Shown in pieces: positions 13,355-64,000 of a stretch of 64,000 nt of DNA. The notes beneath the pieces were generated by a model, which saw only the letters and a list, made by a program, of their open reading frames with translations, had not been told where the DNA came from and made no database searches. The number at the start of each line of letters is the position of its first letter. Positions within the stretch are counted from its first letter, which is position 1. A program made the translations under genes and the position numbers. Where the stretch lies: contig DAHWMK010000022.1 in assembly GCA_027343225.1 (NCBI GenBank), positions 136,266 through 200,265 on the forward strand, read 5' to 3'. This DNA comes from Thermoplasmatales archaeon. Its GTDB lineage: Archaea > Thermoplasmatota > Thermoplasmata > Thermoplasmatales > GCA-001856825.

Positions 13355-15009
13355 TCGCTGAATCTCTTTCAAAAGAGGACGTAAAGTGCGTATTCACTCT
13401 CCCAGATGGATGGCTAATGCCCGTTTACGAAGAACTGGAAAAGAGGGGGATTAGGGTAATCTCAATGAGAAGTGAACAAGCTGCAGCAAATGCAGCGGAC
13501 GGATGGGCTAGGAGCACAAGAAAAATGGGGGTGGTAGCAGTCGCTGTAGGCCCCGGGGTAGCAAATATAATGCCCTCGCTGGCCCAGGCCTACCTAGCTG
13601 GTAGTCCTATTCTTGCACTAGGGGGACGGACACCCTTTTCTAGCATAGATAAGATGGCCTTTGAAGAAGTCAATACTCACTCCTGGGTAGAAGGGTATAC
13701 TAAATACTCTCGAATGGTCACATCGACGTGCCGCTTGAATGAATACATTCAAGATGCAGCTAGACAGGCACTTACGGGTCGGATGGGACCAACGCTCTTG
13801 GAAATACCAAAGGATATTTCTTCCAGCGAGTGTGATCGAGTAATTAACTACGAACTTCCTCAGAGGTACAGACCGGCAGGTAGAATTTATGGTGACAAGG
13901 AAAAGATAAATCAATCTGCAGAGCTAATAAGAAAATCTGAGAGACCCGTAATCGTGGCTGGAAGCGGAGCATATTGGTCCGGTGCATGTGAAGAAATAGT
14001 CAAGCTTGCAGAAGAGATTCATTCTCCAGTTGCAACTGAAGGACTTGCTGTCGGATGCATTCCAAATTCGAATCCATTATTTGGAGGGAATGCAAACGCA
14101 GGAATCATAACAAGATATGCAGATCTCGTGATTGTGATGGGAGCGAGGTTTGATGAATTTTTGGGATACGGAAGAGATGAATCGTTCTTCAGCACGGATA
14201 CAAAGGTGGTGCATGTCGATATAGATCCTACAGTCATAGGCAAAAACAAGGCAGTAGACATTGGTATTTGGGGGGATGTGAAAGCAGTCACTGCCCAAAT
14301 CCTAGAGTCCTTGTCTCAACTGCCAAAGAGCACTGACAAGAGGGTTGAATGGAGTTCAAACACAGGCCTACTCATAAAGGCATATTACGATAGGGTCGAA
14401 GAAGAGGCTGCCTCAGATGAGATTCCCATTCGACCTCAGCGGCTTATGAGAGACCTAAGAGATTTCGCAGGGGAAAACAGCATCTTTATTCTAGACGGGG
14501 GAGACGCTACTGCTTGGGCTTTCTTATATCTCAGATCTTACCGACCCGGACAAATAATATGGTCTCATGGGCCATTCGGAATGATAGGCACCGGGATCCC
14601 TATGGGAATAGCTGCAAAACTTGGAAATCCAGACAAAGACGTATACGTCATAACTGGGGATGGAAGTTTCCTGATGAGTGCAGTTGAAATAGAGACAGCC
14701 AGCAGGTACTCGGTTCCCATCACCATAGTTGTTGTAAATGATAATGTCTGGGGCGATGTGTACCATAACAGGGTACTAGCGACCGGGAGGCAAGAGAGCG
14801 GCAGATACGCACTACTGGAAAGAAGAAAGTATGACGAGTTTGCAAGGAGCTTGGGTGGGTTCGGAGAGTCAGTGGCAGATCCCAACCAAATAATCAATGT
14901 ACTTAAAAGAGCAAAAGATAGCGGGTTACCCTCAGTCGTGGATGTCATTGTATCCAAAGAATTCAACAGTCCACTGAGTCAACTTCAAGGTTTCCTCAAA
15001 AAAGACTAA
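13333..15009 (+). CDS. Thiamine-diphosphate-dependent enzyme (acetolactate synthase / oxalyl-CoA decarboxylase / 2-hydroxyacyl-CoA lyase superfamily)
   Basis: 558 aa with the three-domain ThDP layout and the ThDP-binding motif GDGSFLMSAVEIETA...VVVNDNVWG. It overlaps the upstream gene by 22 nt. Confidence 0.85.
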   Translation: MSKGSEIIAESLSKEDVKCVFTLPDGWLMPVYEELEKRGIRVISMRSEQAAANAADGWARSTRKMGVVAVAVGPGVANIMPSLAQAYLAGSPILALGGRTPFSSIDKMAFEEVNTHSWVEGYTKYSRMVTSTCRLNEYIQDAARQALTGRMGPTLLEIPKDISSSECDRVINYELPQRYRPAGRIYGDKEKINQSAELIRKSERPVIVAGSGAYWSGACEEIVKLAEEIHSPVATEGLAVGCIPNSNPLFGGNANAGIITRYADLVIVMGARFDEFLGYGRDESFFSTDTKVVHVDIDPTVIGKNKAVDIGIWGDVKAVTAQILESLSQLPKSTDKRVEWSSNTGLLIKAYYDRVEEEAASDEIPIRPQRLMRDLRDFAGENSIFILDGGDATAWAFLYLRSYRPGQIIWSHGPFGMIGTGIPMGIAAKLGNPDKDVYVITGDGSFLMSAVEIETASRYSVPITIVVVNDNVWGDVYHNRVLATGRQESGRYALLERRKYDEFARSLGGFGESVADPNQIINVLKRAKDSGLPSVVDVIVSKEFNSPLSQLQGFLKKD

Positions 15010-15156
15010 GCCGAGAAAGTAACGTCAAAGAATTCAAAATAAGAGGCTAAGATGCCGTTCATATCTGACTGGCGAAATGCGAATAAGATCTAGGTTAATT
15101 TAAGTTTCCTTAATTTTAGACAATTATAATATATATCACATAGCATAACATTCGGT

Positions 15157-52897: not shown

Positions 52898-53796
52898 TTC
52901 AGCACACCTACGAAGGGGATCAATATCGAGAACATGGCAACGAACAAGAAGAATATTCCTATGAACACGTTCGTCGAAACGAAGAGCTTCATAATACGCG
53001 TTTCAGGTTGCGCAAGTGCAAGGAGGTAAGATACAAATAGATATCCTCCAAGGATCAGATAAACCACAAAGACTGTGATCCCAATATAAAACGGGAAGTA
53101 CAGTCTGAATTCATATCCGGTCATGACTGTTATAACCACCGCAAGGAGTGCGATAGGAAATAGAATCCTCATTGACTGTTGGGTGGTCCTACCGACTGGA
53201 AGCATTGGAACTGAAGCATTAGCATAGTCTTCCCTGTACTTTATGGAGAGCGACCAGATGTGTAGAGGAGTCCAGATGAAGATTGTCCCGAACATCAAGA
53301 TTGCCAATACGCTGAATGAAGACGTGAAAGCATAAAAACCTGCAAGGAGAGGTGCTGCCCCTGAGTAAGCGCCCAGTATTATGTTCCACGGGGTTCTCTT
53401 CTTCGTGAGGTAGGAATATATTATCGTATAGTCAAAGATGCCAGTTGCCATGAAGGTGAGAGACAGGAGCGATCTGAATGCAGCCAATATGAGGGTAATC
53501 GCTATCAGGATTAGACCGCCATATAGCGCCACATATGGTTTCATTCTCCCTGAAGGAAGTGCCCTGTCCTTCGTTCTCTTCATCTTCTTGTCAATGGAAA
53601 TGTCAAAATAATTAGACAGAGACTCAGCACCCATCAATCCTAACGCGATATAAAGAGCGACATAAAGGAACCCCCCTACGTCCAAACTTCTCATGATGCT
53701 AAGTGCAAATACTTCGCCTGCAATTCCAGTTATCAGGAGAAAAACCCATACCCTAGGCTTTGTCATGAAGAAGAAATCGCTAACGAAGTTTCCCAT
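52894..53796 (-). CDS. ctaB: Protoheme IX farnesyltransferase (heme O synthase), UbiA family
   Basis: 300 aa with about 8-9 TM segments and NYFDISIDKKMKRTKDRALPSG (Asp-rich UbiA motif). Its stop overlaps the alaX start (ATGA). Confidence 0.85.
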   Translation of the reverse strand: MGNFVSDFFFMTKPRVWVFLLITGIAGEVFALSIMRSLDVGGFLYVALYIALGLMGAESLSNYFDISIDKKMKRTKDRALPSGRMKPYVALYGGLILIAITLILAAFRSLLSLTFMATGIFDYTIIYSYLTKKRTPWNIILGAYSGAAPLLAGFYAFTSSFSVLAILMFGTIFIWTPLHIWSLSIKYREDYANASVPMLPVGRTTQQSMRILFPIALLAVVITVMTGYEFRLYFPFYIGITVFVVYLILGGYLFVSYLLALAQPETRIMKLFVSTNVFIGIFFLFVAMFSILIPFVGVLK

Positions 53797-54050
53797 TGAA
53801 AGGACAATAAGGGACTCTATAAATTAATATGGTCGCAGGAAGGTAGATGCATCCATTTGTTTTCTGAAATAATGGAGGGAAATAGGTCCCACCCTCATCA
53901 CTTTGACATCGAGTCCGTTCAACCTAAAGGCTAAATAATGACATCGGATGCAGATTAACTCGTCAGCAACTTTACTTAAGAAGAGTTAAATCTGATATCA
54001 TAAAACCATGTCATCCAAAATAGTGAGGTTGTTGCTTGAGTTTCAGAGTT

Positions 54051-54122
54051 GGGCTGGTAGATCAGCGGAAGATCGCCTCCTTGGCATGGAGGAGGCCCGG
54101 GGTTCAAATCCCCGCCAGTCCA
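54051..54122 (+). tRNA. tRNA-Ala (anticodon GGC)
   Basis: GGGCTGGTAGATCAGCGGAAGATCGCCTCCTTGGCATGGAGGAGGCCCGGGGTTCAAATCCCCGCCAGTCCA. The acceptor stem carries the G3:U70 alanine identity pair, and the anticodon loop is TTGGCAT. No CCA is encoded. Confidence 0.93.
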
Positions 54123-54125
54123 TTA

Positions 54126-54700
54126 CAACTGGTTCAGGGTTGGGGGGATTTGAACCTTCTAACTCCATTAAAAAACCTGATTTCACTTTAGTTGCTTTCT
54201 CAATTGTTACTAGCTGATCCTTCAACTCATATATTTGTTGCGTGTCTACCCGTTCATGACCCAGGATAAGTCTCACGATTTTGGCAATTTCATTCCAATC
54301 TACAGATAATCTCCTGTCTCCTCACGTCCATATTCATAATACAGGGAGATTAATGATACCTAGAAACATCAGTCATTTCTTAGCAAGAAATTACTAATCG
54401 ACCTTAAAGTGTTGGAGAGGATACAGTGATTGGTAAGCGATCGGCAGCAGTTCAAACGATCTCCTTTTTCAGTTCTTACCCGGTAGTTCCAATCACATGA
54501 ATATTGGACATTGCTCTGATAGCGTTCAGAAAACTCTGCTTGGGCAATTTGAGCACTAATTATAATTACGAACGGTGATTTCTAGGGAATCATATCTGAT
54601 TAGCTTTTGTTAGGGATGGGATAATAAAGATGTCAGATTGAGGATGGTCGAAGAATTTTAAGAACATCAATGAAGATACTATTTTCCAATAAAACTTACG
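54126..54700 (-). pseudogene. Decayed tyrosine recombinase (integrase) gene next to tRNA-Ala
   Basis: Hand translation of the minus strand gives ...DWNEIAKIVRLILGHERVDTQQIYELKD (LGH..T..Y box II, 54229-54264). It is preceded one frame off by MNMDVRRQEIICRLE (HxLRR-like, 54317-54328) at the canonical ~24-codon spacing. Further upstream are fragments LELPGKN*KRRSFELLP and VLKILRPSSI* resembling GKG.K.R..P and the box I Arg region. Multiple stops and frameshifts are present. Confidence 0.6.
54144..54156. repeat. 13-nt perfect inverted copy of the tRNA-Ala T-arm (GGGGATTTGAACC versus GGTTCAAATCCCC at 54101-54113)
   Basis: Direct reading of the sequence. On the minus strand it reads GGTTCAAATCCCCCCAACCCTG, which resembles a tRNA 3' part (T-loop to acceptor end) lacking a matching 5' T-stem. 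Confidence 0.7.
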
Positions 54701-54762
54701 CTAAGACAGAAATATCAAAAGGTACAGAACAAATTTATTAGGTTCGGGGAAATAAATAGAGG

Positions 54763-55248
54763 ATGTGGGAGAAAATTCTCAAGAAAAATTTTGACAAGAC
54801 AGACATCGAAATAATGACATCACTCAATCAGGACGGTAGGATCACAGACCAAAAGATAGCAAATAGACTTGGGATTTCGAAAACTTCTGTCAGGACTAGA
54901 AGACTAAGGCTACAGAAGACAGGAGCAATAAAGATAATAGCACTTCTTGTTCTTCAAAATATGTCTCTTTCTTATGCAGACGTTTTAATTCAATTCAAGC
55001 CGGACTCCGACATTGGTACCATAAAAAGATTCGTGAATGCGTGTGCAAGCGATGAGTATATCTACGAAATTTCTGAATACGTCGGAGCGTATGACCTTCT
55101 TCTTAGATTTTTCGACAGGGATCTAAATGACCTAAAGGAGCATATAATTTCCACGGTCTTAGGTAATAAGATAATTTCCAACTACACCGTTTTCCCAGTA
55201 GTAAGGAGCTACAAAGCATGGGGAAATACTCTCAGTTCTGACGATTAA
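54763..55248 (+). CDS. Lrp/AsnC-family transcriptional regulator
   Basis: 161 aa with the HTH DIEIMTSLNQDGRITDQKIANRLGISKTSVRTRRLRLQKTG and a RAM-like C-terminal domain. Confidence 0.8.
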   Translation: MWEKILKKNFDKTDIEIMTSLNQDGRITDQKIANRLGISKTSVRTRRLRLQKTGAIKIIALLVLQNMSLSYADVLIQFKPDSDIGTIKRFVNACASDEYIYEISEYVGAYDLLLRFFDRDLNDLKEHIISTVLGNKIISNYTVFPVVRSYKAWGNTLSSDD

Positions 55249-55352
55249 AGTGAAAGGGACTGTGCCTTACTGAAACCGTTAAACTGAGATCTCCACTATT
55301 TACCTCATTTGCTTTTTCAGAGAGATACTTCATTTGGCTCACCAACGGACCT

Positions 55353-57083
55353 CTAATGTCTCTTAATCCGTTCCCTAAGTTTTCTTGTCTCCTCGAGATT
55401 TACTCCTGAGATATCTTCATGAAGAACTACCCCATAAATCTCCTTTGCGACTTGAATCGATACCAGCTCATTCCTCACATCTGCCAGAACTTTCTGCGGG
55501 TCCCTGTCTAGAGGGTCTCCATATCCGCCACCTGAAGACGTCATTATGCTTATGAGGTCCCCATCAAGAAGGCGTTCCGCTGATAGTCTCCTAATCTCTT
55601 TCCGTCTTCCACTCTCGAAAGTTATGACCTTATTGCCAGATCCATCTTGACCATCGTTAATACCCCATGGTTTAAAGTCGTGTCTTCCGACCTGCAAAGT
55701 AACCAGTGCCTCGCTGTTTCTGATCCGGTAGTTTCTGATTACACCAAAACCGCCCCTAAATTTGCCGTGACCCCCGCCACTTTCGAGGTTTAGCGAATAT
55801 CTTTCGACCACGATCGGAAAGTTCTTTTCGTACACTTCGGATGAAGCTATGTATGTTTCTCCATCACCGCACGCAACGAGGCCACTCGTTCCATCATAGA
55901 GTGCAGTTGCGCCCCATCCTCCAGGTTGTGGTTCTACAATCGCAAAAGGTTCCTTGGTCTTGTCATTTATCCCACCAACTATGGTAGCTACTATAGATAG
56001 GAAATGGCCTGCAGGCAGCCTGTCTGGGAAATTAGGAGCAAGCGCCTTCCAGACAAGTTCAGTAGCAAAGGCTATTGCCTCCCAATCAGTTGATGTCGGT
56101 GCTGGTCTTACTGGATAGAATACCGATCCAGGTTCAGCTACAACCTTTAGTGGTTTGAAGTAACCGCCGGTTGGATACGCGTGTGGATCCGTAACTGCAA
56201 GGAAAACTTCTCTTACCCCAGAAACTGTCGCAGGAAAAGGAGAATTTATTGGACTCATCACCTGCCTGTCGCTTCCCCTGAAATCCACAGAAAATTCGTC
56301 ATCAGTAATCTTTACCTTCGTCCTTACGTAAACTGGATCTTTCTTGTTGGCGATTGCTGCATCAATATAATCTTCAGCTTCGAATTCCCCCTTGGGGAGT
56401 TCCTTCAGTTTGAGTTTTGCGTACTTTTCGCCATCTTCGGACAATTTCTTCATTGCTGTAAGAACGTTTTCAATTCCATACTTTTCAATAAGTTTCTTGA
56501 CCCTCATTTCTGCAACTCTCATCGAAGCAGCCTGTGATTCCATGTCGCCCAAGGTGTAGGATGGAAGTCTGGAATTCTCTAGTATAACCTCAATCAAGTC
56601 TTTATTTCTTTTACCCTTGTCAAAGAGCTTGACGCATGGCATCTGCAAGCCTTCTTGAAATATCTCTGTTGAGTTCGGGTTCCAACTCCCGAAAGCCATA
56701 CCCCCGATTTCGCTCCAGTGTCCTTTGTTAACTACAAGCCCTATCAATTCATCTCTGTGGAACATTGGCAGTACTAACGTCACATCGTTGAGGTGAGTTC
56801 CAGAATTGTATGGAACATTGCTCACTATGATGTCTCCAGGATGCAGCTCTTCTTTCCACTTGTCGAGTACTTCCCTTGCAGCGAAGTCAAGAACTCCTGA
56901 GAATGCAGGTACTCCTGGTGCCTGTGCCACCAGTTCACCCTTAGCATCAGTCATTCCAACTGCGAAATCATAGACCTCGTATATGACGGGGCTCTTTGCA
57001 GTTCTAGCGAATGATATGAACATTTCCTCATTTGCGACTATCAGCCCATTTTTTACGATTTCGATTGTAAATCGGTCTGTCAC
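55353..57083 (-). CDS. hyuB: Hydantoinase B / oxoprolinase family protein (HyuB-like)
   Basis: Carries FTIEIVKNGL..., PGDIIVSNVPYNSGTHLNDV and GGGYGDP, typical of this family. I prefer GTG 57083, just after the hyuA stop and following GGGGGTGAAG. The track start at 57131 would overlap hyuA by 46 nt. Confidence 0.85.
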   Translation of the reverse strand: MTDRFTIEIVKNGLIVANEEMFISFARTAKSPVIYEVYDFAVGMTDAKGELVAQAPGVPAFSGVLDFAAREVLDKWKEELHPGDIIVSNVPYNSGTHLNDVTLVLPMFHRDELIGLVVNKGHWSEIGGMAFGSWNPNSTEIFQEGLQMPCVKLFDKGKRNKDLIEVILENSRLPSYTLGDMESQAASMRVAEMRVKKLIEKYGIENVLTAMKKLSEDGEKYAKLKLKELPKGEFEAEDYIDAAIANKKDPVYVRTKVKITDDEFSVDFRGSDRQVMSPINSPFPATVSGVREVFLAVTDPHAYPTGGYFKPLKVVAEPGSVFYPVRPAPTSTDWEAIAFATELVWKALAPNFPDRLPAGHFLSIVATIVGGINDKTKEPFAIVEPQPGGWGATALYDGTSGLVACGDGETYIASSEVYEKNFPIVVERYSLNLESGGGHGKFRGGFGVIRNYRIRNSEALVTLQVGRHDFKPWGINDGQDGSGNKVITFESGRRKEIRRLSAERLLDGDLISIMTSSGGGYGDPLDRDPQKVLADVRNELVSIQVAKEIYGVVLHEDISGVNLEETRKLRERIKRH

Positions 57084-57085
57084 TC

Positions 57086-59155
57086 TTACTTCACCCCCTT
57101 TATTATTATATTTCTGTATTTGTCTGGCCAAAATTCCTGTCCTTTTAGCACAATGACTGTTGATGTTGGGTCTTCAATTACTGCTGGTCCCTTAATTCTT
57201 CTATCGACCTTGAGGTTGTTCTTATCGTACACTGTCGCATCAATAGCGCTCCCCTCGATGAAAAGAAGACGCTGACCGATCTCTTCGTAGCCATTCCCGA
57301 AGGTCGTATTTTCAGTTATTCTTGGCTTCTCTATTGTGGTGGTGCCGACAGCGTGATAATTGATCATCTCGACAGGACTCTCTTCCAATCTAAAATTATA
57401 CTCCCTTTCGTGCGTTGAGTGAAACTTTCGAATCAGACTGGAGATGTCCTTTATCGACAGGGAAATCTTGTCCATCTGGACTTTGACAGTGTGTTCCTGT
57501 CCTCTATATCTCATATCCGAGAAATGTGAAATTTTCACTTTTTCATTTGAGATTCCTTCGTCCTCTTGAAATACATCAAGTATGTTCTCATCCAGTGTCT
57601 TGAATGTCTTATTGATTGTCGGAAGATTTTCCTCCCCCAACTTTAGGACATTCGTTGCTATCAAGTCGTGCCTAATGTCCGTGAGCAACATTCCCCATGC
57701 TGAAAAGACTCCTGGAGGTATAGAAGGAACGATTATCTTGTTCATCTCAAGTTCCTTGGCGATAAACGGGGCGAACATTGGGCCCGATCCTCCATGTGCA
57801 ATCAGAGTAAAGTCCCTAGGATCGTATCCCTTCTGTATTGAAACTATCCTGATTGCGTCTGCCGCGTTTTCATTTGCGATTTTTATTATGCCGTCTGCCG
57901 CTTCTTCCGTGGAAATCTCGAACCTACTTGCTATCTTGTCCTTTATCAGGTCAACTGCCCTGTCCTTGAAAATTTTCATTTCGCCGCCAAGGAGATAGTT
58001 GGGATTGATCAGTCCGTTTACCACGTAAGCGTCAGTTACTGTGACTTCTGTTCCCCCCTTCCCATAGCAGGCGGGACCAGGAACGGCTCCAGTGGCAATA
58101 GGTCCGACTCTCAAGTTTCCAACTTCGTCTATCCACGCAATGCTCGTCCCTCCATTGCCCACTTCTTCAATTTCTGTAACTGGAACTTTAAGCGGGTAAC
58201 CAGGATTGAATTTGCTTTTATTAATCTGATATTCGCTGTTCACTTTTTGGGTCAAATTTTCAATGAGACCGGCTTTTGTGGTTGTACTCCCTCCATCCAG
58301 AACCACTATGTTTTTTTCTCCTATTAGCCTAGCCAGCTCTATCCCACCCATTATTCCAGCAATGGGACCAGACTCTACCGCAAAGATAGGGAAGTCTTTT
58401 ACGAAACTAAACGAAGCGACTCCGCCATTGGACAAAATAGAAAAGAACTTCCCCTTGAAACCCATGTTTCCGATCTCCCTCTCGAGTTTTGAAAGATAGC
58501 TCCTCATCTTAGGCTTCACGAATGAGTTGAGTACTGCCGTGTTGGTTCTTTCGTATTCCCCCCACTGCATTGTTACCTTGTGGGAAAGGGTTATAGGGAT
58601 GTTGTCAACTTTCATGGATTTGAGAACATCCGAAACGATTTCTCCTGCTTCTATCTCGTGTGAAGGATTTACATAGGAATTGATAAAACTGATGCATATT
58701 GACTCTACTTTTTCATTGAGTAGTTTAATAGTTGCATCTCTAACCTGTTCTCTGTTAAGAGGTAACGTTTCTGTGCCGTCACTTAACATTCTTTCCGAGA
58801 CTTCGTGAGTAAGATATCTTGCGACAAACGGTTCAGGTTTCCTATATGCGAAATTGTAAACATCTCTTCTATTGGCTCGCTGTAGTATTAAGACATCCCT
58901 GTAGCCTTCTGTCGTCAGAAGTCCTACTTTTGCACCACTTCTAGTAATGATAGAGTTTATCACCACGGTCTGCCCGTGACCGACTATGGTGACGACGTCA
59001 GCCATATTCACTTTACTTTTCCTTATAGCATTTAACACTCCCGCAGATGGGTCTTCCGGGGTTGTCTCGACCTTGACCCATATTATCTTGCCTTTCTGTT
59101 CATCGTATGCGACGAGATCTGTGAAAGCGCCGCCAATATCCACACCAATCCTCAT
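57086..59155 (-). CDS. hyuA: Hydantoinase A / oxoprolinase family protein (HyuA-like)
   Basis: MRIGVDIGGAFTDLV... with the ATP-binding fold DGGSTTTK. ATG 59155 overlaps the racemase stop (ATGA). The track start is 59182. Confidence 0.88.
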   Translation of the reverse strand: MRIGVDIGGAFTDLVAYDEQKGKIIWVKVETTPEDPSAGVLNAIRKSKVNMADVVTIVGHGQTVVINSIITRSGAKVGLLTTEGYRDVLILQRANRRDVYNFAYRKPEPFVARYLTHEVSERMLSDGTETLPLNREQVRDATIKLLNEKVESICISFINSYVNPSHEIEAGEIVSDVLKSMKVDNIPITLSHKVTMQWGEYERTNTAVLNSFVKPKMRSYLSKLEREIGNMGFKGKFFSILSNGGVASFSFVKDFPIFAVESGPIAGIMGGIELARLIGEKNIVVLDGGSTTTKAGLIENLTQKVNSEYQINKSKFNPGYPLKVPVTEIEEVGNGGTSIAWIDEVGNLRVGPIATGAVPGPACYGKGGTEVTVTDAYVVNGLINPNYLLGGEMKIFKDRAVDLIKDKIASRFEISTEEAADGIIKIANENAADAIRIVSIQKGYDPRDFTLIAHGGSGPMFAPFIAKELEMNKIIVPSIPPGVFSAWGMLLTDIRHDLIATNVLKLGEENLPTINKTFKTLDENILDVFQEDEGISNEKVKISHFSDMRYRGQEHTVKVQMDKISLSIKDISSLIRKFHSTHEREYNFRLEESPVEMINYHAVGTTTIEKPRITENTTFGNGYEEIGQRLLFIEGSAIDATVYDKNNLKVDRRIKGPAVIEDPTSTVIVLKGQEFWPDKYRNIIIKGVK

Positions 59156-59937
59156 TTTGTAACCTCCTTGATCGATTTCCATCTAAAGCCGTATTGTTTT
59201 TCCAAGCCCCATTCCTTAATTTCTTCATATGGGGGTGCTTCGTACCTTCCAATCTTACTGTGCCCTAGTCCAGTTATCTTCTTTATGTCAATGAGGAAGG
59301 ATGCCATGAGAAGCGGAGCAAGAGATGCGTCTATCACAGGTACTCCTAGTTTGTCTTGCATCTTCTGGTAGAAACCAAATTCTGCTGTGCAACCCAGGAT
59401 TATAACTTCTGCCATATCCTCTTCGACTGCCTCTTTACCCGCCTTTAACAATCTTTTTTCCGTCTCCTTTTGATTTGACTGAAAATCTAGCACTCCCATA
59501 TCAATCGATTTGAAAGAAGCAAGTCTATCCTTGAAGCCATATTTCAAAACATTTTCTTCCATCTGTGGTATCCATTTTCTTCTTCCCACTATTATGGAGA
59601 ATTTGTGGCCAAGAGATATCGCGATTGACATCGAAGACTCCGAAGGTGCGGTCACTATAATATTCGAAATTTCCCTAGCTTCAGACAGAAAGGGGTCATA
59701 GAAACATCCGATTACTGCAGCATCATAACCTTCAAGCTCAGCCTTCTTTACAGACCTTAGAATGTCTTGCCCAACCAAGGCCTCGTAAAACTGATATTCT
59801 AAGTGTTTGGGGCCCATTTTGAACGAAACGGTATCCACATTTACGTCACTCTTTACATATTTACTGAAATATTCTGCCATCGGTTGATCAAAAATGTTCC
59901 AACCGACGGGATTTATCCACAGAACCTTTTTATTCAT
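59152..59937 (-). CDS. Asp/Glu/hydantoin racemase family protein
   Basis: 261 aa with conserved Cys contexts (AAVIGCFYDP, VIILGCTAEF) typical of two-thiol racemases. Confidence 0.75.
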   Translation of the reverse strand: MNKKVLWINPVGWNIFDQPMAEYFSKYVKSDVNVDTVSFKMGPKHLEYQFYEALVGQDILRSVKKAELEGYDAAVIGCFYDPFLSEAREISNIIVTAPSESSMSIAISLGHKFSIIVGRRKWIPQMEENVLKYGFKDRLASFKSIDMGVLDFQSNQKETEKRLLKAGKEAVEEDMAEVIILGCTAEFGFYQKMQDKLGVPVIDASLAPLLMASFLIDIKKITGLGHSKIGRYEAPPYEEIKEWGLEKQYGFRWKSIKEVTK

Positions 59938-60010
59938 TCACACACCTCTTTCTTTAGAACTAAAAAATATGGCTTAGAAAAAATACAAAAATTTCCACAC
60001 GACATACTGT

Positions 60011-61051
60011 CTACCCTACCTCCTTCTGTTTGGTGTTCTCCTTGGTTGAGTAAAGATGGCAGCTAACCAGGTGGTTCTTGGTGTATTCTATGAGTGGGGG
60101 ATCTATAGTACTGCATATCTCCATGGCAAATGGGCACCTAGGATGAAAACTGCACCCACTTGGAAGGTGTAAGGCACCTGCTATCTCACCAATGTTTGGA
60201 ACCTTCTGAGGTTTTAGTTTTTCTTCCTCTTCAGTTATCACGGGTATCGAAGAAAGGAGGAGTTTTGTATACGGATGGAGGGGATTTCTGAAAAATTCTC
60301 CTGTATCCGACACCTCCTTTAATTTACCTAGGTAGGTGATTGCAACTCTGTCGGAGACATTCGACATGAGGCTGAGATTGTGGGTTATAAAAAGGTAGGA
60401 CAGGTTGAGTTCTTCTTTAAGTTTCATGAGAATGTTTATTATCTTCCCTTGAACAGAAACATCCAGTGCTGACGTTGGTTCGTCCAGTACCATGAAAGAT
60501 GGTTCAGTAGCAAGTGCCCTAGCTATAGCGACAAGCTGTTTCTCTCCTCCTCCAAGTTCATCCGGGTATCTATTTACGAACTCAGCCGGAAGGTCCACTG
60601 TTTGCATGAGCTTCAATATCTCGCTGTCGATATCTACCCCCTGACGATGAACTTCGAGCGGTAGTCTCAGCGTCTGCTTTACGGTCTTTCGAGGGTTAAG
60701 GGACGATGCTGGATTCTGAAATACTATCTGGATATCCTTCTTAAGCCATTTAGGCCGTCTATTTCCGTACTTGGCAATATCTTCGCCTTTGTACAACATT
60801 TTTCCTGAAGTAGGAGGATATATACCTACAATCATGTTTCCAATTGTAGTTTTACCTGACCCAGATTCTCCGACAAGTCCCAGTATTTCTCCATCCTGTA
60901 TCTTAAATTCCACATCGTCCACTGCCTTTATCACCCCCTTCTTTGTCGTAAAATATTTCTTCAAGTTGCTGACTTCCAGTATAGTTGCCGTATCATCTAC
61001 CTCCTCTTTCGAAAAGATGACAGGCAACGTAATGCTCTTTTTCAACTTCAT
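60011..61051 (-). CDS. Peptide/nickel-type ABC transporter ATP-binding protein (OppF/DppF-like)
   Basis: 346 aa with Walker A GESGSGKTT, the signature LGGGEKQ, Walker B MVLDEPTSALD and a C-terminal oligopeptide-type extension with Cys residues. Confidence 0.88.
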   Translation of the reverse strand: MKLKKSITLPVIFSKEEVDDTATILEVSNLKKYFTTKKGVIKAVDDVEFKIQDGEILGLVGESGSGKTTIGNMIVGIYPPTSGKMLYKGEDIAKYGNRRPKWLKKDIQIVFQNPASSLNPRKTVKQTLRLPLEVHRQGVDIDSEILKLMQTVDLPAEFVNRYPDELGGGEKQLVAIARALATEPSFMVLDEPTSALDVSVQGKIINILMKLKEELNLSYLFITHNLSLMSNVSDRVAITYLGKLKEVSDTGEFFRNPLHPYTKLLLSSIPVITEEEEKLKPQKVPNIGEIAGALHLPSGCSFHPRCPFAMEICSTIDPPLIEYTKNHLVSCHLYSTKENTKQKEVG

Positions 61052-61991
61052 ATATAGGGGGGGAATCTGTTTCGCACTTGTCGATTTTAAAGGGGCATCT
61101 TGTCACGAACCTGCAACCCTTAGGGGGGTTTAGGTAGCTTGGAACAACTCCCGGGATACCCTTTGGTACCCCCCCTCCGCTGAGCGTAGGGACACTGTGA
61201 AGAAGCATCTCGGTGTACGGATGTTTCGGATTTGAAAAGATTACTCCTGTCGGTCCTGATTCTACGATTGTTCCAGCGTACATCACATATATTCTGTCCA
61301 CGAATCCCTTGACCGTTCCTAGGGAGTGTGTAATGAGTATGACCGAGATCTTTTCCCTTTCAACTATCGACTTTAGAAGGCGCATTATCTGGTCCTCTAT
61401 CGTGACATCTAGTGCTGTTCCAGGTTCATCAGCTATGAGGAGATCACGGGCTGAAACCAGAGCCATTGCTATGTTCACTCTCTGCTTCATTCCACCAGAG
61501 AGCTCGAATGGGTAACTGTCCATGATTCGATCAGGTTCTGGGAGTGCTGCCTCTTGGAAGTAACGCACAGCACGATCGTGCAGTTCGTCCTTAGTCAACC
61601 TCTCATCGGATGAGTACTTCAAAGTATCGTACATCTGTTGTCTGATTTTGAAAACTGGATTCAAAGCGGTTGTGGGGTCTTGAAATATCATTGCAAGGTT
61701 GTGTTTTCTCAATAAAGAGAAATCTGAATTGGGCATCGTCAGTATATTGTTGCCGTTAAGGGATATTTCTCCGTTCATTAGAACGGCGTTGCTCGAGAGA
61801 ATTCTCATCACAGACTTCATCGTGGTCGTTTTTCCACACGCCGATTCCCCTATTATCCCGATTTTCTCTCCTCTTAACAGATAGAAGGAAATATCGTTTA
61901 ACACGCTTAACAAACCTTCGTATACCCGATATCCCACCGATAGCTTTTTGACTTCAAGGAGCACGTTAGAGTTTTTCAACATTGGCTTCAC
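60993..61991 (-). CDS. Peptide/nickel-type ABC transporter ATP-binding protein (OppD/DppD-like)
   Basis: 332 aa with GESACGKTT, LSGGMKQR and LIADEPGTALD. Confidence 0.88.
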   Translation of the reverse strand: MKPMLKNSNVLLEVKKLSVGYRVYEGLLSVLNDISFYLLRGEKIGIIGESACGKTTTMKSVMRILSSNAVLMNGEISLNGNNILTMPNSDFSLLRKHNLAMIFQDPTTALNPVFKIRQQMYDTLKYSSDERLTKDELHDRAVRYFQEAALPEPDRIMDSYPFELSGGMKQRVNIAMALVSARDLLIADEPGTALDVTIEDQIMRLLKSIVEREKISVILITHSLGTVKGFVDRIYVMYAGTIVESGPTGVIFSNPKHPYTEMLLHSVPTLSGGGVPKGIPGVVPSYLNPPKGCRFVTRCPFKIDKCETDSPPIYEVEKEHYVACHLFERGGR

Positions 61992-62896
61992 CTAATTGAT
62001 GATGAAAACATATCCCTGATTCCATCTCCCAAAAGATTAAACGCGAGAATCACAAGTACTACTGCAATTGCAGGGAATATGGAGATCCACCATATGTTTG
62101 GCAAATACGAGGATCCCTCCGCTATCATAGTTCCCAGGTCTGGAGTTGGTGGTGGTGCTCCAAGGCCGACATAGCTCAGTGCAGCTCCAATCAGTATTAC
62201 CCAGCCAGCATCTAGAGAAATCTTGGTTAATATGGATCCCAGTTCGTTGGGCAGTATTTCAGAAAACATAATGTGGAATGATGAAGCACCGGTCAATTTA
62301 GCTGCCCTCACATAATCTTCATTCCTTAGCGAAGATGTTTGCGAATAGACAAGCCTGGTATACCATGGCCACCATACAAGGGAAATGGCCATCAAAACGT
62401 GTAACTCAGTAGGTCTCATAACAGATGCAACTGAGAGCGCGAGCAGGAGAGGTGGAACTGCTACGAATATATCAGCTACACGCATGATCAGTACGCTGAA
62501 CCATCTTCGAATGTAGTAACCTGCGACCAGTCCCATCACTACACCCGGTACCACTGTAATACCTAGAACCACACCCACAAGGGTGAACGAATATCGAAAC
62601 GCAAACATCACTCTAGTTAGAACATCTCTACCGTCTTCATCAGTACCAAATAAATGTGATAGATTTGGAGACTTCAAAGAATCACTGAAGTTGACATACA
62701 ATCCAGCATTGGAAGGGTATGGGGAAATATGTGGTGCAAAAATTGCAATTATCAGAAGGAATATCAGTATTCCAAGTCCGACCAGTGATAATTTATTGTT
62801 TTTGAACTTGTACCAATACTTTCCATAGTGATGTAACCTCTTGGATAAATTAACAACGCTTGTTTCAGCGGTCAAGTCAATCACCAGTCTCCCCAC
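61988..62896 (-). CDS. ABC transporter permease (OppC/DppC-like)
   Basis: 302 aa with 6 TM segments and an EAA-like loop (VRAAKLTGASSFHIMFSEILPN). Confidence 0.85.
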   Translation of the reverse strand: MGRLVIDLTAETSVVNLSKRLHHYGKYWYKFKNNKLSLVGLGILIFLLIIAIFAPHISPYPSNAGLYVNFSDSLKSPNLSHLFGTDEDGRDVLTRVMFAFRYSFTLVGVVLGITVVPGVVMGLVAGYYIRRWFSVLIMRVADIFVAVPPLLLALSVASVMRPTELHVLMAISLVWWPWYTRLVYSQTSSLRNEDYVRAAKLTGASSFHIMFSEILPNELGSILTKISLDAGWVILIGAALSYVGLGAPPPTPDLGTMIAEGSSYLPNIWWISIFPAIAVVLVILAFNLLGDGIRDMFSSSIR

Positions 62897-63911
62897 TTAT
62901 TCTTGGATCCAGTCGACTCACCGTCAAGTCGACTAGCGTATTGGCAATAACGAACAAGATTCCAGCGACCATTACAACCGCAATGATCGCATTAAGGTCC
63001 TTACCAAGCATGGCGTTAAGTCCATATCTTGAAAGTCCGGGCCAGTTGAAGATTAGCTCTATAAGGAAGGCATTTGCAATCATAGATGATACATCCAGCG
63101 CATAGACCGTTATCATTGGGATTATTGATGGTTTCAGCAAATACCTCGTTGTTATAACACGCTCAGGGAGACCCCTTGACGTTTCTGATAACGTGAAATC
63201 CATGTTTTGATTTTCAACTACTGATGACCTCAGTATTCTTGCTTCTTGAGCAATTGGTCCAAGTGCTAGTGAAAATGCAGGCAATATTAAATGCCATATG
63301 GCGTTGATCCAAGTCCCGAAGTCGCCTGTTATGAGCCCGTCAATCAGATAAAGTCCAGTGATGTGTGGAGGAGGGCTAATACCAGGGCTCAACTCTCCAA
63401 TTACAGGGAAAAGGTGAAGGCCATACCCCAGCGACAGCTGAAGCAGTATAGCGACCACAAATGAGGGGACTGCAATACCAATGTATGAAATCACTCTCAC
63501 GATATTGTCTACGTAAGAATTCTCCCTCCTTCCAGCAATTAGACCCAGAGGAATTGATATCAACAGATCCATTATTGCTGCAGTGACTAGAAGATCAAGC
63601 GTCGCAGGAAGAAACTCCTCAACATCCGTGAGTACGTTTCTATGAGTAGTCAAGGAAATACCCCAGTTGCCGGTAAATAACCCCTCTATCCAGTACCAGT
63701 ACTGTACAGGTAGAGGTTCTCTCAGATGAAGTTCCGATATAAGCGTATTAATGGCCGACAGGGAGGCGTTTGGACCCAAAGCAAGTCTTGCCAGATCTAC
63801 AGGGGTCCCAGGGAGCACTCTAGCTAAAACAAATACCAGAACGGACAGGCCAAATAGAGATATGATACCGTAGGCGAGCCTATTGATTACAAAACTGCTC
63901 CCTTTTTTCAT
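62877..63911 (-). CDS. ABC transporter permease (OppB/DppB-like)
   Basis: 344 aa with 6 TM segments and the loop SETSRGLPERVITTRYLLKPS. Confidence 0.85.
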   Translation of the reverse strand: MKKGSSFVINRLAYGIISLFGLSVLVFVLARVLPGTPVDLARLALGPNASLSAINTLISELHLREPLPVQYWYWIEGLFTGNWGISLTTHRNVLTDVEEFLPATLDLLVTAAIMDLLISIPLGLIAGRRENSYVDNIVRVISYIGIAVPSFVVAILLQLSLGYGLHLFPVIGELSPGISPPPHITGLYLIDGLITGDFGTWINAIWHLILPAFSLALGPIAQEARILRSSVVENQNMDFTLSETSRGLPERVITTRYLLKPSIIPMITVYALDVSSMIANAFLIELIFNWPGLSRYGLNAMLGKDLNAIIAVVMVAGILFVIANTLVDLTVSRLDPRISGETGD

Positions 63912-63967
63912 TCTATCACCTTGTTTCCTCCGAGACTAAATTAAATAAGGTAAATAAAAGGAAAAAA

Positions 63968-64000
63968 CTACTTGTCACTAAGGCATCGCTGTAGCATTGA
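63968..64000 (-). CDS. Possible 3' end of the upstream gene (expected substrate-binding protein), only 10 codons in the window
   Basis: Minus strand reads ...SMLQRCLSDK* with TAG at 63970-63968, 56 nt upstream of the permease start. The identity is inferred only from canonical Opp/Dpp gene order. Confidence 0.25.
   Translation of the reverse strand, partial: SMLQRCLSDK

Follow-up and report, generated by a model that had tools for sequence, protein, structure and literature searches.

Gene Content of the tRNA-Ala(GGC) Locus

The analyzed window is a 64,000-nt stretch of DNA (G000:C15:136266-200265) from a 1.21-Mb, 74%-complete metagenome-assembled genome (MAG) of an uncultured, acidophilic archaeon of the order Thermoplasmatales. 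The locus is built around an intact tRNA-Ala(GGC) gene and continues past the right end of the window. The following features can be described.

54050..54123, plus strand: intact tRNA-Ala(GGC) gene (ARAGORN; Rfam tRNA, 64.4 bits)
54106-54122, plus strand: putative att core AAATCCCCGCCAGTCCA, the last 16-17 nt of tRNA-Ala(GGC), deduced from the direct repeats that bound the elements of G079 and G116
54104..54181, minus strand: integrase relic, authentic terminal frame IRFFNGVRRFKSPQP*TSCNGLAGI* (protein HMM positions 265-292 of 292; tblastn against the tails of the G008, G015, and G013 genes)
54182..54282, minus strand: integrase relic, upstream frame KIVRLILGHERVDTQQIYELKDQLVTIEKATKV... (protein HMM positions 234-282 of 292; nhmmer match 54104-54281, envelope to 54297)
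54283..54762, no strand: spacer of about 480 nt separating the relic from the Lrp/AsnC gene (no signal of an integrase, no homolog in relatives or in this genome, no Rfam match)
54763..64000 and on to about 66175, no strand: variable insert (ORFs, Pfam, synteny with 12 relatives)
54763-55248, plus strand: Lrp/AsnC regulator (ORF, Pfam)
55353-57131, minus strand: hydantoinase B, hyuB (ORF, Pfam)
57086-59182, minus strand: hydantoinase A, hyuA (ORF, Pfam)
59152-59937, minus strand: Asp/Glu/hydantoin racemase (ORF, Pfam)
60011-63911, minus strand: oppF, oppD, oppC, and oppB (ORF, Pfam)
Beyond the window end, to about window coordinate 66175 (G000:C15:~202440): oppA

To the left of tRNA-Ala(GGC) lies a minus-strand gene for heme O synthase (UbiA family), and this pairing is kept throughout the genus. 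In the Rfam search of 53500-55300 at E<=1, the tRNA alone was matched.

The genome contains a second tRNA-Ala gene (G000:C27:60684-60765), whose 3' half is the same as that of tRNA-Ala(GGC). Four short contigs from independent assemblies of the same species (L091-L094) break at the 3' end of tRNA-Ala(GGC), probably because the C27 gene has an identical 3' half. In genome annotation, the slot downstream of tRNA-Ala(GGC) should be flagged as hypervariable in the genus and as a place where assemblies tend to break. Contig C9 was considered as an alternative allele of the locus and rejected, as it carries only a ~34% paralog.

Integrase Remnant Adjacent to tRNA-Ala(GGC)

The first-pass annotation described the 640 nt between the tRNA and the Lrp/AsnC gene as a relic tyrosine recombinase gene. 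This holds for the last ~60 codons of an integrase, the 3'-terminal fifth of the gene, which occupies about 179 nt on the minus strand (54104-54282). The rest is unrelated sequence, and a full gene would not fit. The box II motif LGHERVDTQQIY, previously placed at 54229-54264 of the minus strand, is encoded at exactly these positions (54264..54229) and, as the nhmmer match shows, stands far above chance. It keeps the conserved His (LGH, 54264-54256) and the catalytic Tyr (54231-54229).

The relic is disrupted by a single frameshift at about 54182-54190 and by an internal TGA (54134-54136), and it is cut off on its 5' side at about 54282-54297. The native stop codon, TGA at 54104-54106, falls inside the T-loop of tRNA-Ala(GGC), the frame ending in NGLAGI* (54124..54104). 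The relic tail also contains, at 54144-54156, a 13-bp inverted copy of the tRNA T-arm (54101-54113) that encodes RFKSP. Within the integrase family, a motif resembling FKS is partly conserved, as is the DNA that encodes it. The inverted copy may be an additional integrase-binding site, or it may merely reflect a constraint on the protein.

Two family-specific profiles were used, a protein HMM built from 11 members and a DNA profile derived from the intact genes that related Thermoplasmatales MAGs carry at this site. With the DNA profile, nhmmer aligns 54104-54281 of the minus strand with profile positions 694-872 of 872 (E=3.7e-18 locally), and the relic is the top match in the whole 1.2-Mb genome (E=2.3e-15), part of the score stemming from the 17 nt common to the tRNA. 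The protein HMM covers the relic in two frames, at positions 234-282 (the KIVRLILGHERVDTQQIY... frame) and 265-292 of 292, with low scores of 11.9 and 6.6 bits. A tblastn search of the whole genome with the G015 gene yields the relic with E=7e-6. The assignment of this stretch to the integrase family leans on the DNA profile and on positional correspondence.

Generic profiles perform differently. A Pfam search of three stop-masked minus-strand frames of the relic region (E<=10) produced nothing, and when all six frames of the genome were scanned with PF00589, the matches were a XerA-like gene on C27 and a partial integrase on C30, the relic going undetected. Therefore, the frameshift-tolerant search proposed earlier as a check would come out negative if based on Pfam or PF00589, whereas the family-specific DNA and protein profiles do match. 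As the intact ortholog from G008 scores 103 bits against PF00589 (E=1.7e-29) and the relic has no match, the relic derives from a member of PF00589 and is not itself one. The C30 integrase (G000:C30:458-886, L002) is a different PF00589 protein (98.8 bits) on a 4.7-kb contig; its 210-aa frame starts close to the beginning of the contig. It may be part of another mobile element broken by assembly.

The catalytic Arg-I, the Lys, and the HxxR box (R134, K157, and H221xxR224 in the G008 numbering) are absent from the relic according to the protein HMM and nhmmer. Judged by its sequence, the integrase stub, devoid of these residues, is non-functional. The open frame 54043..54276 (77 aa), reported to run through the tRNA, does exist, although it is an artifact: it passes antisense through the tRNA in the wrong frame and is a by-product of the frameshift. 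We propose that 54104-54282 be marked as an integrase pseudogene fragment and that the 77-aa frame not be annotated as a gene.

Intact Members of the Integrase Family in Related Genomes

Intact integrases occupy the identical site, in the identical register, in G008 (298 aa) and G013 (302 aa), and truncated integrases adjoin tRNA-Ala(GGC) in G015, G002, and G018. The coincidence of site, orientation, and register in the intact orthologs bears out the original proposal that a mobile element with a tyrosine integrase was once inserted at the 3' end of tRNA-Ala. Comparison of the G008 protein with 169 genomes of the order delineates a distinct subfamily with 41-59% identity. At 14 of the 15 family loci across the order, the gene abuts tRNA-Ala(GGC) with an overlap of ~16 nt and in the same register. 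The integrase gene faces the tRNA from the opposite strand, and its last five codons and stop (GLAGI*) are antisense to the 16-17 nt with which the tRNA ends. The relic shares these characteristics of the lineage: profile homology, location antisense to tRNA-Ala(GGC), a stop codon in the T-loop, and the ~16-nt overlap.

An intact family member has a length of ~298 aa (~890 nt) and the catalytic motif W[HQ]KCRHTYAK of the HxxR type. The nearest solved relatives are XerA of P. abyssi (4A8E, E=7.5e-39) and of T. acidophilum (5HXY, E=1.9e-31). Full-length genes in the integrated state were found in six genomes (G008, G013, G019, G116, G079, and G086). Two of them provide element boundaries. The 16-nt tRNA end of G079 recurs as a direct repeat 13.4 kb downstream, and the 17-nt tRNA end of G116 recurs 24 kb downstream. 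These repeats define an att core of the family that extends from the T-loop to the tRNA 3' end, coinciding with the last five integrase codons and the stop. When the element ends are joined in silico, the predicted episomal integrase is 16-23 aa longer than the integrated form. Most proteins encoded by the complete G079 element lack Pfam matches; the remainder include a STAND NTPase and an HTH protein.

The G079 locus (L083, G079:C74) contains an older, 218-nt integrase 3' stub at 14807-15025, right after the distal att repeat (nhmmer, E=4e-11). Therefore, a newer element entered a site already bearing a stub and pushed this stub outward, an example of serial integration.

A pattern scan of IMG/VR found no relatives of the family, and for Thermoplasmatales one review names XerA alone (PMC8371274). 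The data presented here define a tRNA-Ala(GGC)-specific integrase lineage in Thermoplasmatales, together with its 16-17-nt att core.

Variable Insert Downstream of the Stub

Synteny with related genomes is unbroken up to the tRNA and resumes at C15:~202440-202507, at a KaiC-like gene, in G012, G018, G003, G011, G014, and G007. In G001 (L026) and G015 (L022), the backbone resumes only at the homolog of C15:~206616, and the KaiC-like gene with its neighbors (G000:C15:202440-206600) is missing. As these two genomes resume later than the other six, the variable zone beside the tRNA is two-tiered.

The ~12-kb module with the Lrp, hydantoinase, racemase, and Opp genes is missing from the tRNA slot in all 12 relatives, where the slot comprises 1.1 to 12 kb of other content. 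A HyuB homolog (E<=1e-20) is present in four of the 18 same-genus genomes. Among the whole genomes searched, the best HyuB match (72%) comes from another family; the same-genus G005, the sole close copy within the genus, has 51% and carries the module at another locus, and metagenomic copies reach 82-84%. Thus, the patchy distribution of HyuB and the absence of the module from the slot in relatives indicate that this module in a hypervariable slot was probably acquired horizontally.

The closest foreign cluster, oppABCDF-racemase-hyuA-hyuB...Lrp with 82% HyuB, was observed in a MAG labeled Micrarchaeaceae (L095; GCA_038878415.1, JAVZVQ010000013.1). It has the same gene order, with DDE transposase genes located at one end as well as in the interval from hyuB to Lrp. 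No integrase was found beside the hyu-opp module in G005, G038, or L095, and in L095 no tRNA either. The hyu-opp module looks like a cassette exchanged horizontally among acidophilic archaea.

The composition of the insert is ordinary, with a GC content of 43.2% vs. 43.9% for the genome and a tetranucleotide distance at the 67th percentile of genome windows. A direct repeat of the tRNA-Ala 3' half had been expected to mark the second boundary; all genome-wide matches proved to be tRNA genes. With up to three mismatches, the 17-nt core has no second copy in the window or in C15:200000-212000, and in the whole MAG it matches tRNA genes only, with no free displaced tRNA 3' fragment. Searches with 14-mers and local alignment likewise returned only tRNA genes. 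No attR that would mark the far boundary of the original element survives there. Considered as a tRNA-linked island, the interval from 54124 to ~66175 combines a tRNA and an integrase remnant with absence from relatives and a patchy distribution, and has neither attL/attR repeats nor atypical composition.

Origin of the Stub and of the Adjacent Genes

In our interpretation, 54104-54282 is very probably the 3' stub of an integrase from the XerA-like tRNA-Ala(GGC) family, left by an element that integrated here and whose interior was deleted; a link to the genes on the right is not part of this interpretation. A full-length integrase pseudogene that decayed in place and takes up all 640 nt of the spacer (54124-54762) seems to us very unlikely. 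Short motif-like strings do occur there in other frames, and one of them, MDVRRQ (54314-54331), assigned in the first-pass annotation to the HxLRR position, lies about 20-24 codons upstream of LGH, roughly in the place of HxxR. However, it has just the Arg in common with W[HQ]KCRHTYAK and was matched by none of the HMM, tblastn (word size 2), tblastx/blastn, nhmmer, and Pfam searches. Two other supposed integrase pieces, GKN*KRRSFELLP and LKILRPSSI*, were dropped after the same kinds of search (HMM at E<=100, tblastn, tblastx/blastn, nhmmer, and Pfam) left them unmatched. HMM positions 1-233 have no match in the spacer in any frame with filters off at E<=100, and upstream of about 54297 no trace of the integrase family was found in any frame or in DNA (HMM, tblastn, tblastx, nhmmer). 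The sequence 54283-54762, which presumably holds the Lrp promoter, has no match in any of the fetched loci or in its own genome (tblastx/blastn). The tRNA-to-Lrp distance of 640 nt leaves no room for an intact gene of ~890 nt. In our reading, the integrase was cut by deletion rather than decayed in place. It is very improbable, too, that the similarity arose by chance or from a conserved tRNA trailer or terminator element. The tRNA sequence supplies part of the profile score, and the ~35 nt 3' of tRNA-Ala(GGC) are 90-93% conserved in five relatives; yet this conserved stretch is integrase coding sequence in G008 and G019 and is wholly missing in G001, G010, and G012, and the homology reaches 158 nt past the tRNA, including the LGH...Y box. 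We give practically no credence to the stub being the Int(C) part of an SSV-type ("suicidal," type I) integrase, with a complete provirus to the right and Int(N) at its far end. The open frame leading from the integrase fragment into the tRNA superficially resembles partitioned genes (PMC8371274), but the six genomes listed above have full-length integrated genes, the att core covers the last five codons and the stop instead of the break point of the stub, and neither the remainder of C15 nor the genome contains an N-terminal integrase fragment.

The status of the genes to the right is a separate question. The suggestion that they may be cargo of the vanished element agrees with their forming a variable, horizontally distributed insert. 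That Lrp-hyuBA-racemase-oppFDCBA was brought in by the element of the stub and is now a decayed, fixed ~12-kb island (54124 to ~66175) is possible, though we consider it unlikely. The module is bounded exactly by the stub on one side and by the resumed backbone on the other, is absent from the site in the 12 relatives, and has a patchy HyuB distribution, with the best whole-genome match in another family. On the other hand, attR is lacking, the composition is ordinary, and the same module occurs at integrase-free loci in G005 and G038. Moreover, the closest foreign copy is located beside DDE transposases without an integrase or a tRNA, the G079 element carries mostly Pfam-less proteins, a STAND NTPase, and an HTH protein instead of metabolic operons, and the slot contents differ in every relative.

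Truncation Series and Proposed History of the Site

The DNA-profile scan of the genus revealed stubs of 505 nt (G015), 313 nt (G002), 179 nt (the window), 153 nt (G018), 50 nt (G014), 47 nt (G011), 38 nt (G003), 37 nt (G017), and 35 nt (G007), and one of at least 58 nt in G005, where it reaches the contig end. Every stub ends in tRNA-Ala(GGC), and together they form a nested 5'-truncated set. In the comparison with relatives, earlier suggested as a search for the empty site, several genomes retain intact or truncated integrases, and no integrase trace was detected by the scan in G012, G001, and G010. The simplest explanation of this series would be repeated integration followed by deletions unable to cross the tRNA.

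The following scenario may be proposed. An element of the XerA-like family would have integrated at the 3' end of tRNA-Ala(GGC). Crossover in the T-loop/acceptor segment would restore the tRNA from element DNA, and the displaced original 3' end would come to lie on the distal side of the element. A later deletion would have taken out the inside of the element together with some 80% of the integrase gene. The tRNA is presumably needed, so deletions would stop short of it and the stub anchored there would persist; the frameshift and the stop codon would have been gained afterwards. With its tRNA 3' end intact, the site should still be able to serve as an attB. Eight public assemblies of the species, from several samples, share an identical stub arrangement with 99.97-100% identity, and a search for intermediate states in all eight returned none, each having the same stub. 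The deletion history is one that we infer rather than observe, all eight assemblies being in the same state.

The relic itself is an ordinary scar of a mobile element and contains nothing surprising to a specialist. The locus documents the decay of integrative elements against an undeletable tRNA, and the related genomes supply a clean series for comparison. A broader hypothesis, speculative and rather improbable at present, is that tRNA-Ala(GGC) is an order-wide, long-lived hot spot of an undescribed integrase lineage, in which integration swaps the C-terminal tail of the protein, a possible integration-state switch, and that it serves as a gate for metabolic modules. If true, this would amount to SSV-type gene partition in a minimal form confined to the 3' end, and the hot spot would let in modules such as the hydantoinase/Opp cluster.

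Comparison With Known Systems

Islands flanked by tRNA genes and carrying integrases are known for acidophilic archaea generally (PMC12302457). The prototype of type II (non-partitioning, lambda-paradigm) integrases is that of pNOB8, according to the She et al. classification reviewed in PMC8371274. The family described here resembles this type in being intact after integration, as observed in relatives, in its tRNA 3' target, and in the position of the integrase at the element end beside the regenerated tRNA. The type II signature is R...YxxR...Y (PMC8371274), whereas the family has the Xer/bacterial arrangement R...K...HxxR...H...Y (W[HQ]KCRH...LGH...Y), and its att core, in contrast to the pNOB8 type, overlaps its own last five codons and stop.

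The XerA chromosome-dimer resolvases (4A8E, 5HXY) have the same length and two-domain layout as the family and are its closest solved relatives. The XerA-like gene of the host, located on C27 (327-aa frame), is ~28-30% identical to the family, which is accessory, sporadic, and tRNA-linked.

Integrases of bacterial phages and islands use a classical T-loop sublocation of tRNA sites, as reportedly described by Williams (2002; cited in PMC12302457). The sites considered here are alike in that the identity block extends from the T-loop to the tRNA 3' end, the tRNA is restored by the element, and remnants mark old events. They differ in the archaeal host (Thermoplasmatales) and in the target, which is specifically the GGC isoacceptor of tRNA-Ala.

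The SSV-type "suicidal" integrases (PMC7253208, PMC8371274) share with the family an att site inside the integrase frame and a dependence of the protein end on the integration state, the predicted episomal form of the family having the additional 16-23 aa. Genes of the SSV type are split into inactive halves. In the family, with its six full-length integrated genes and no Int(N) in G000, no more than the last five codons are concerned, and the integrated gene is complete.
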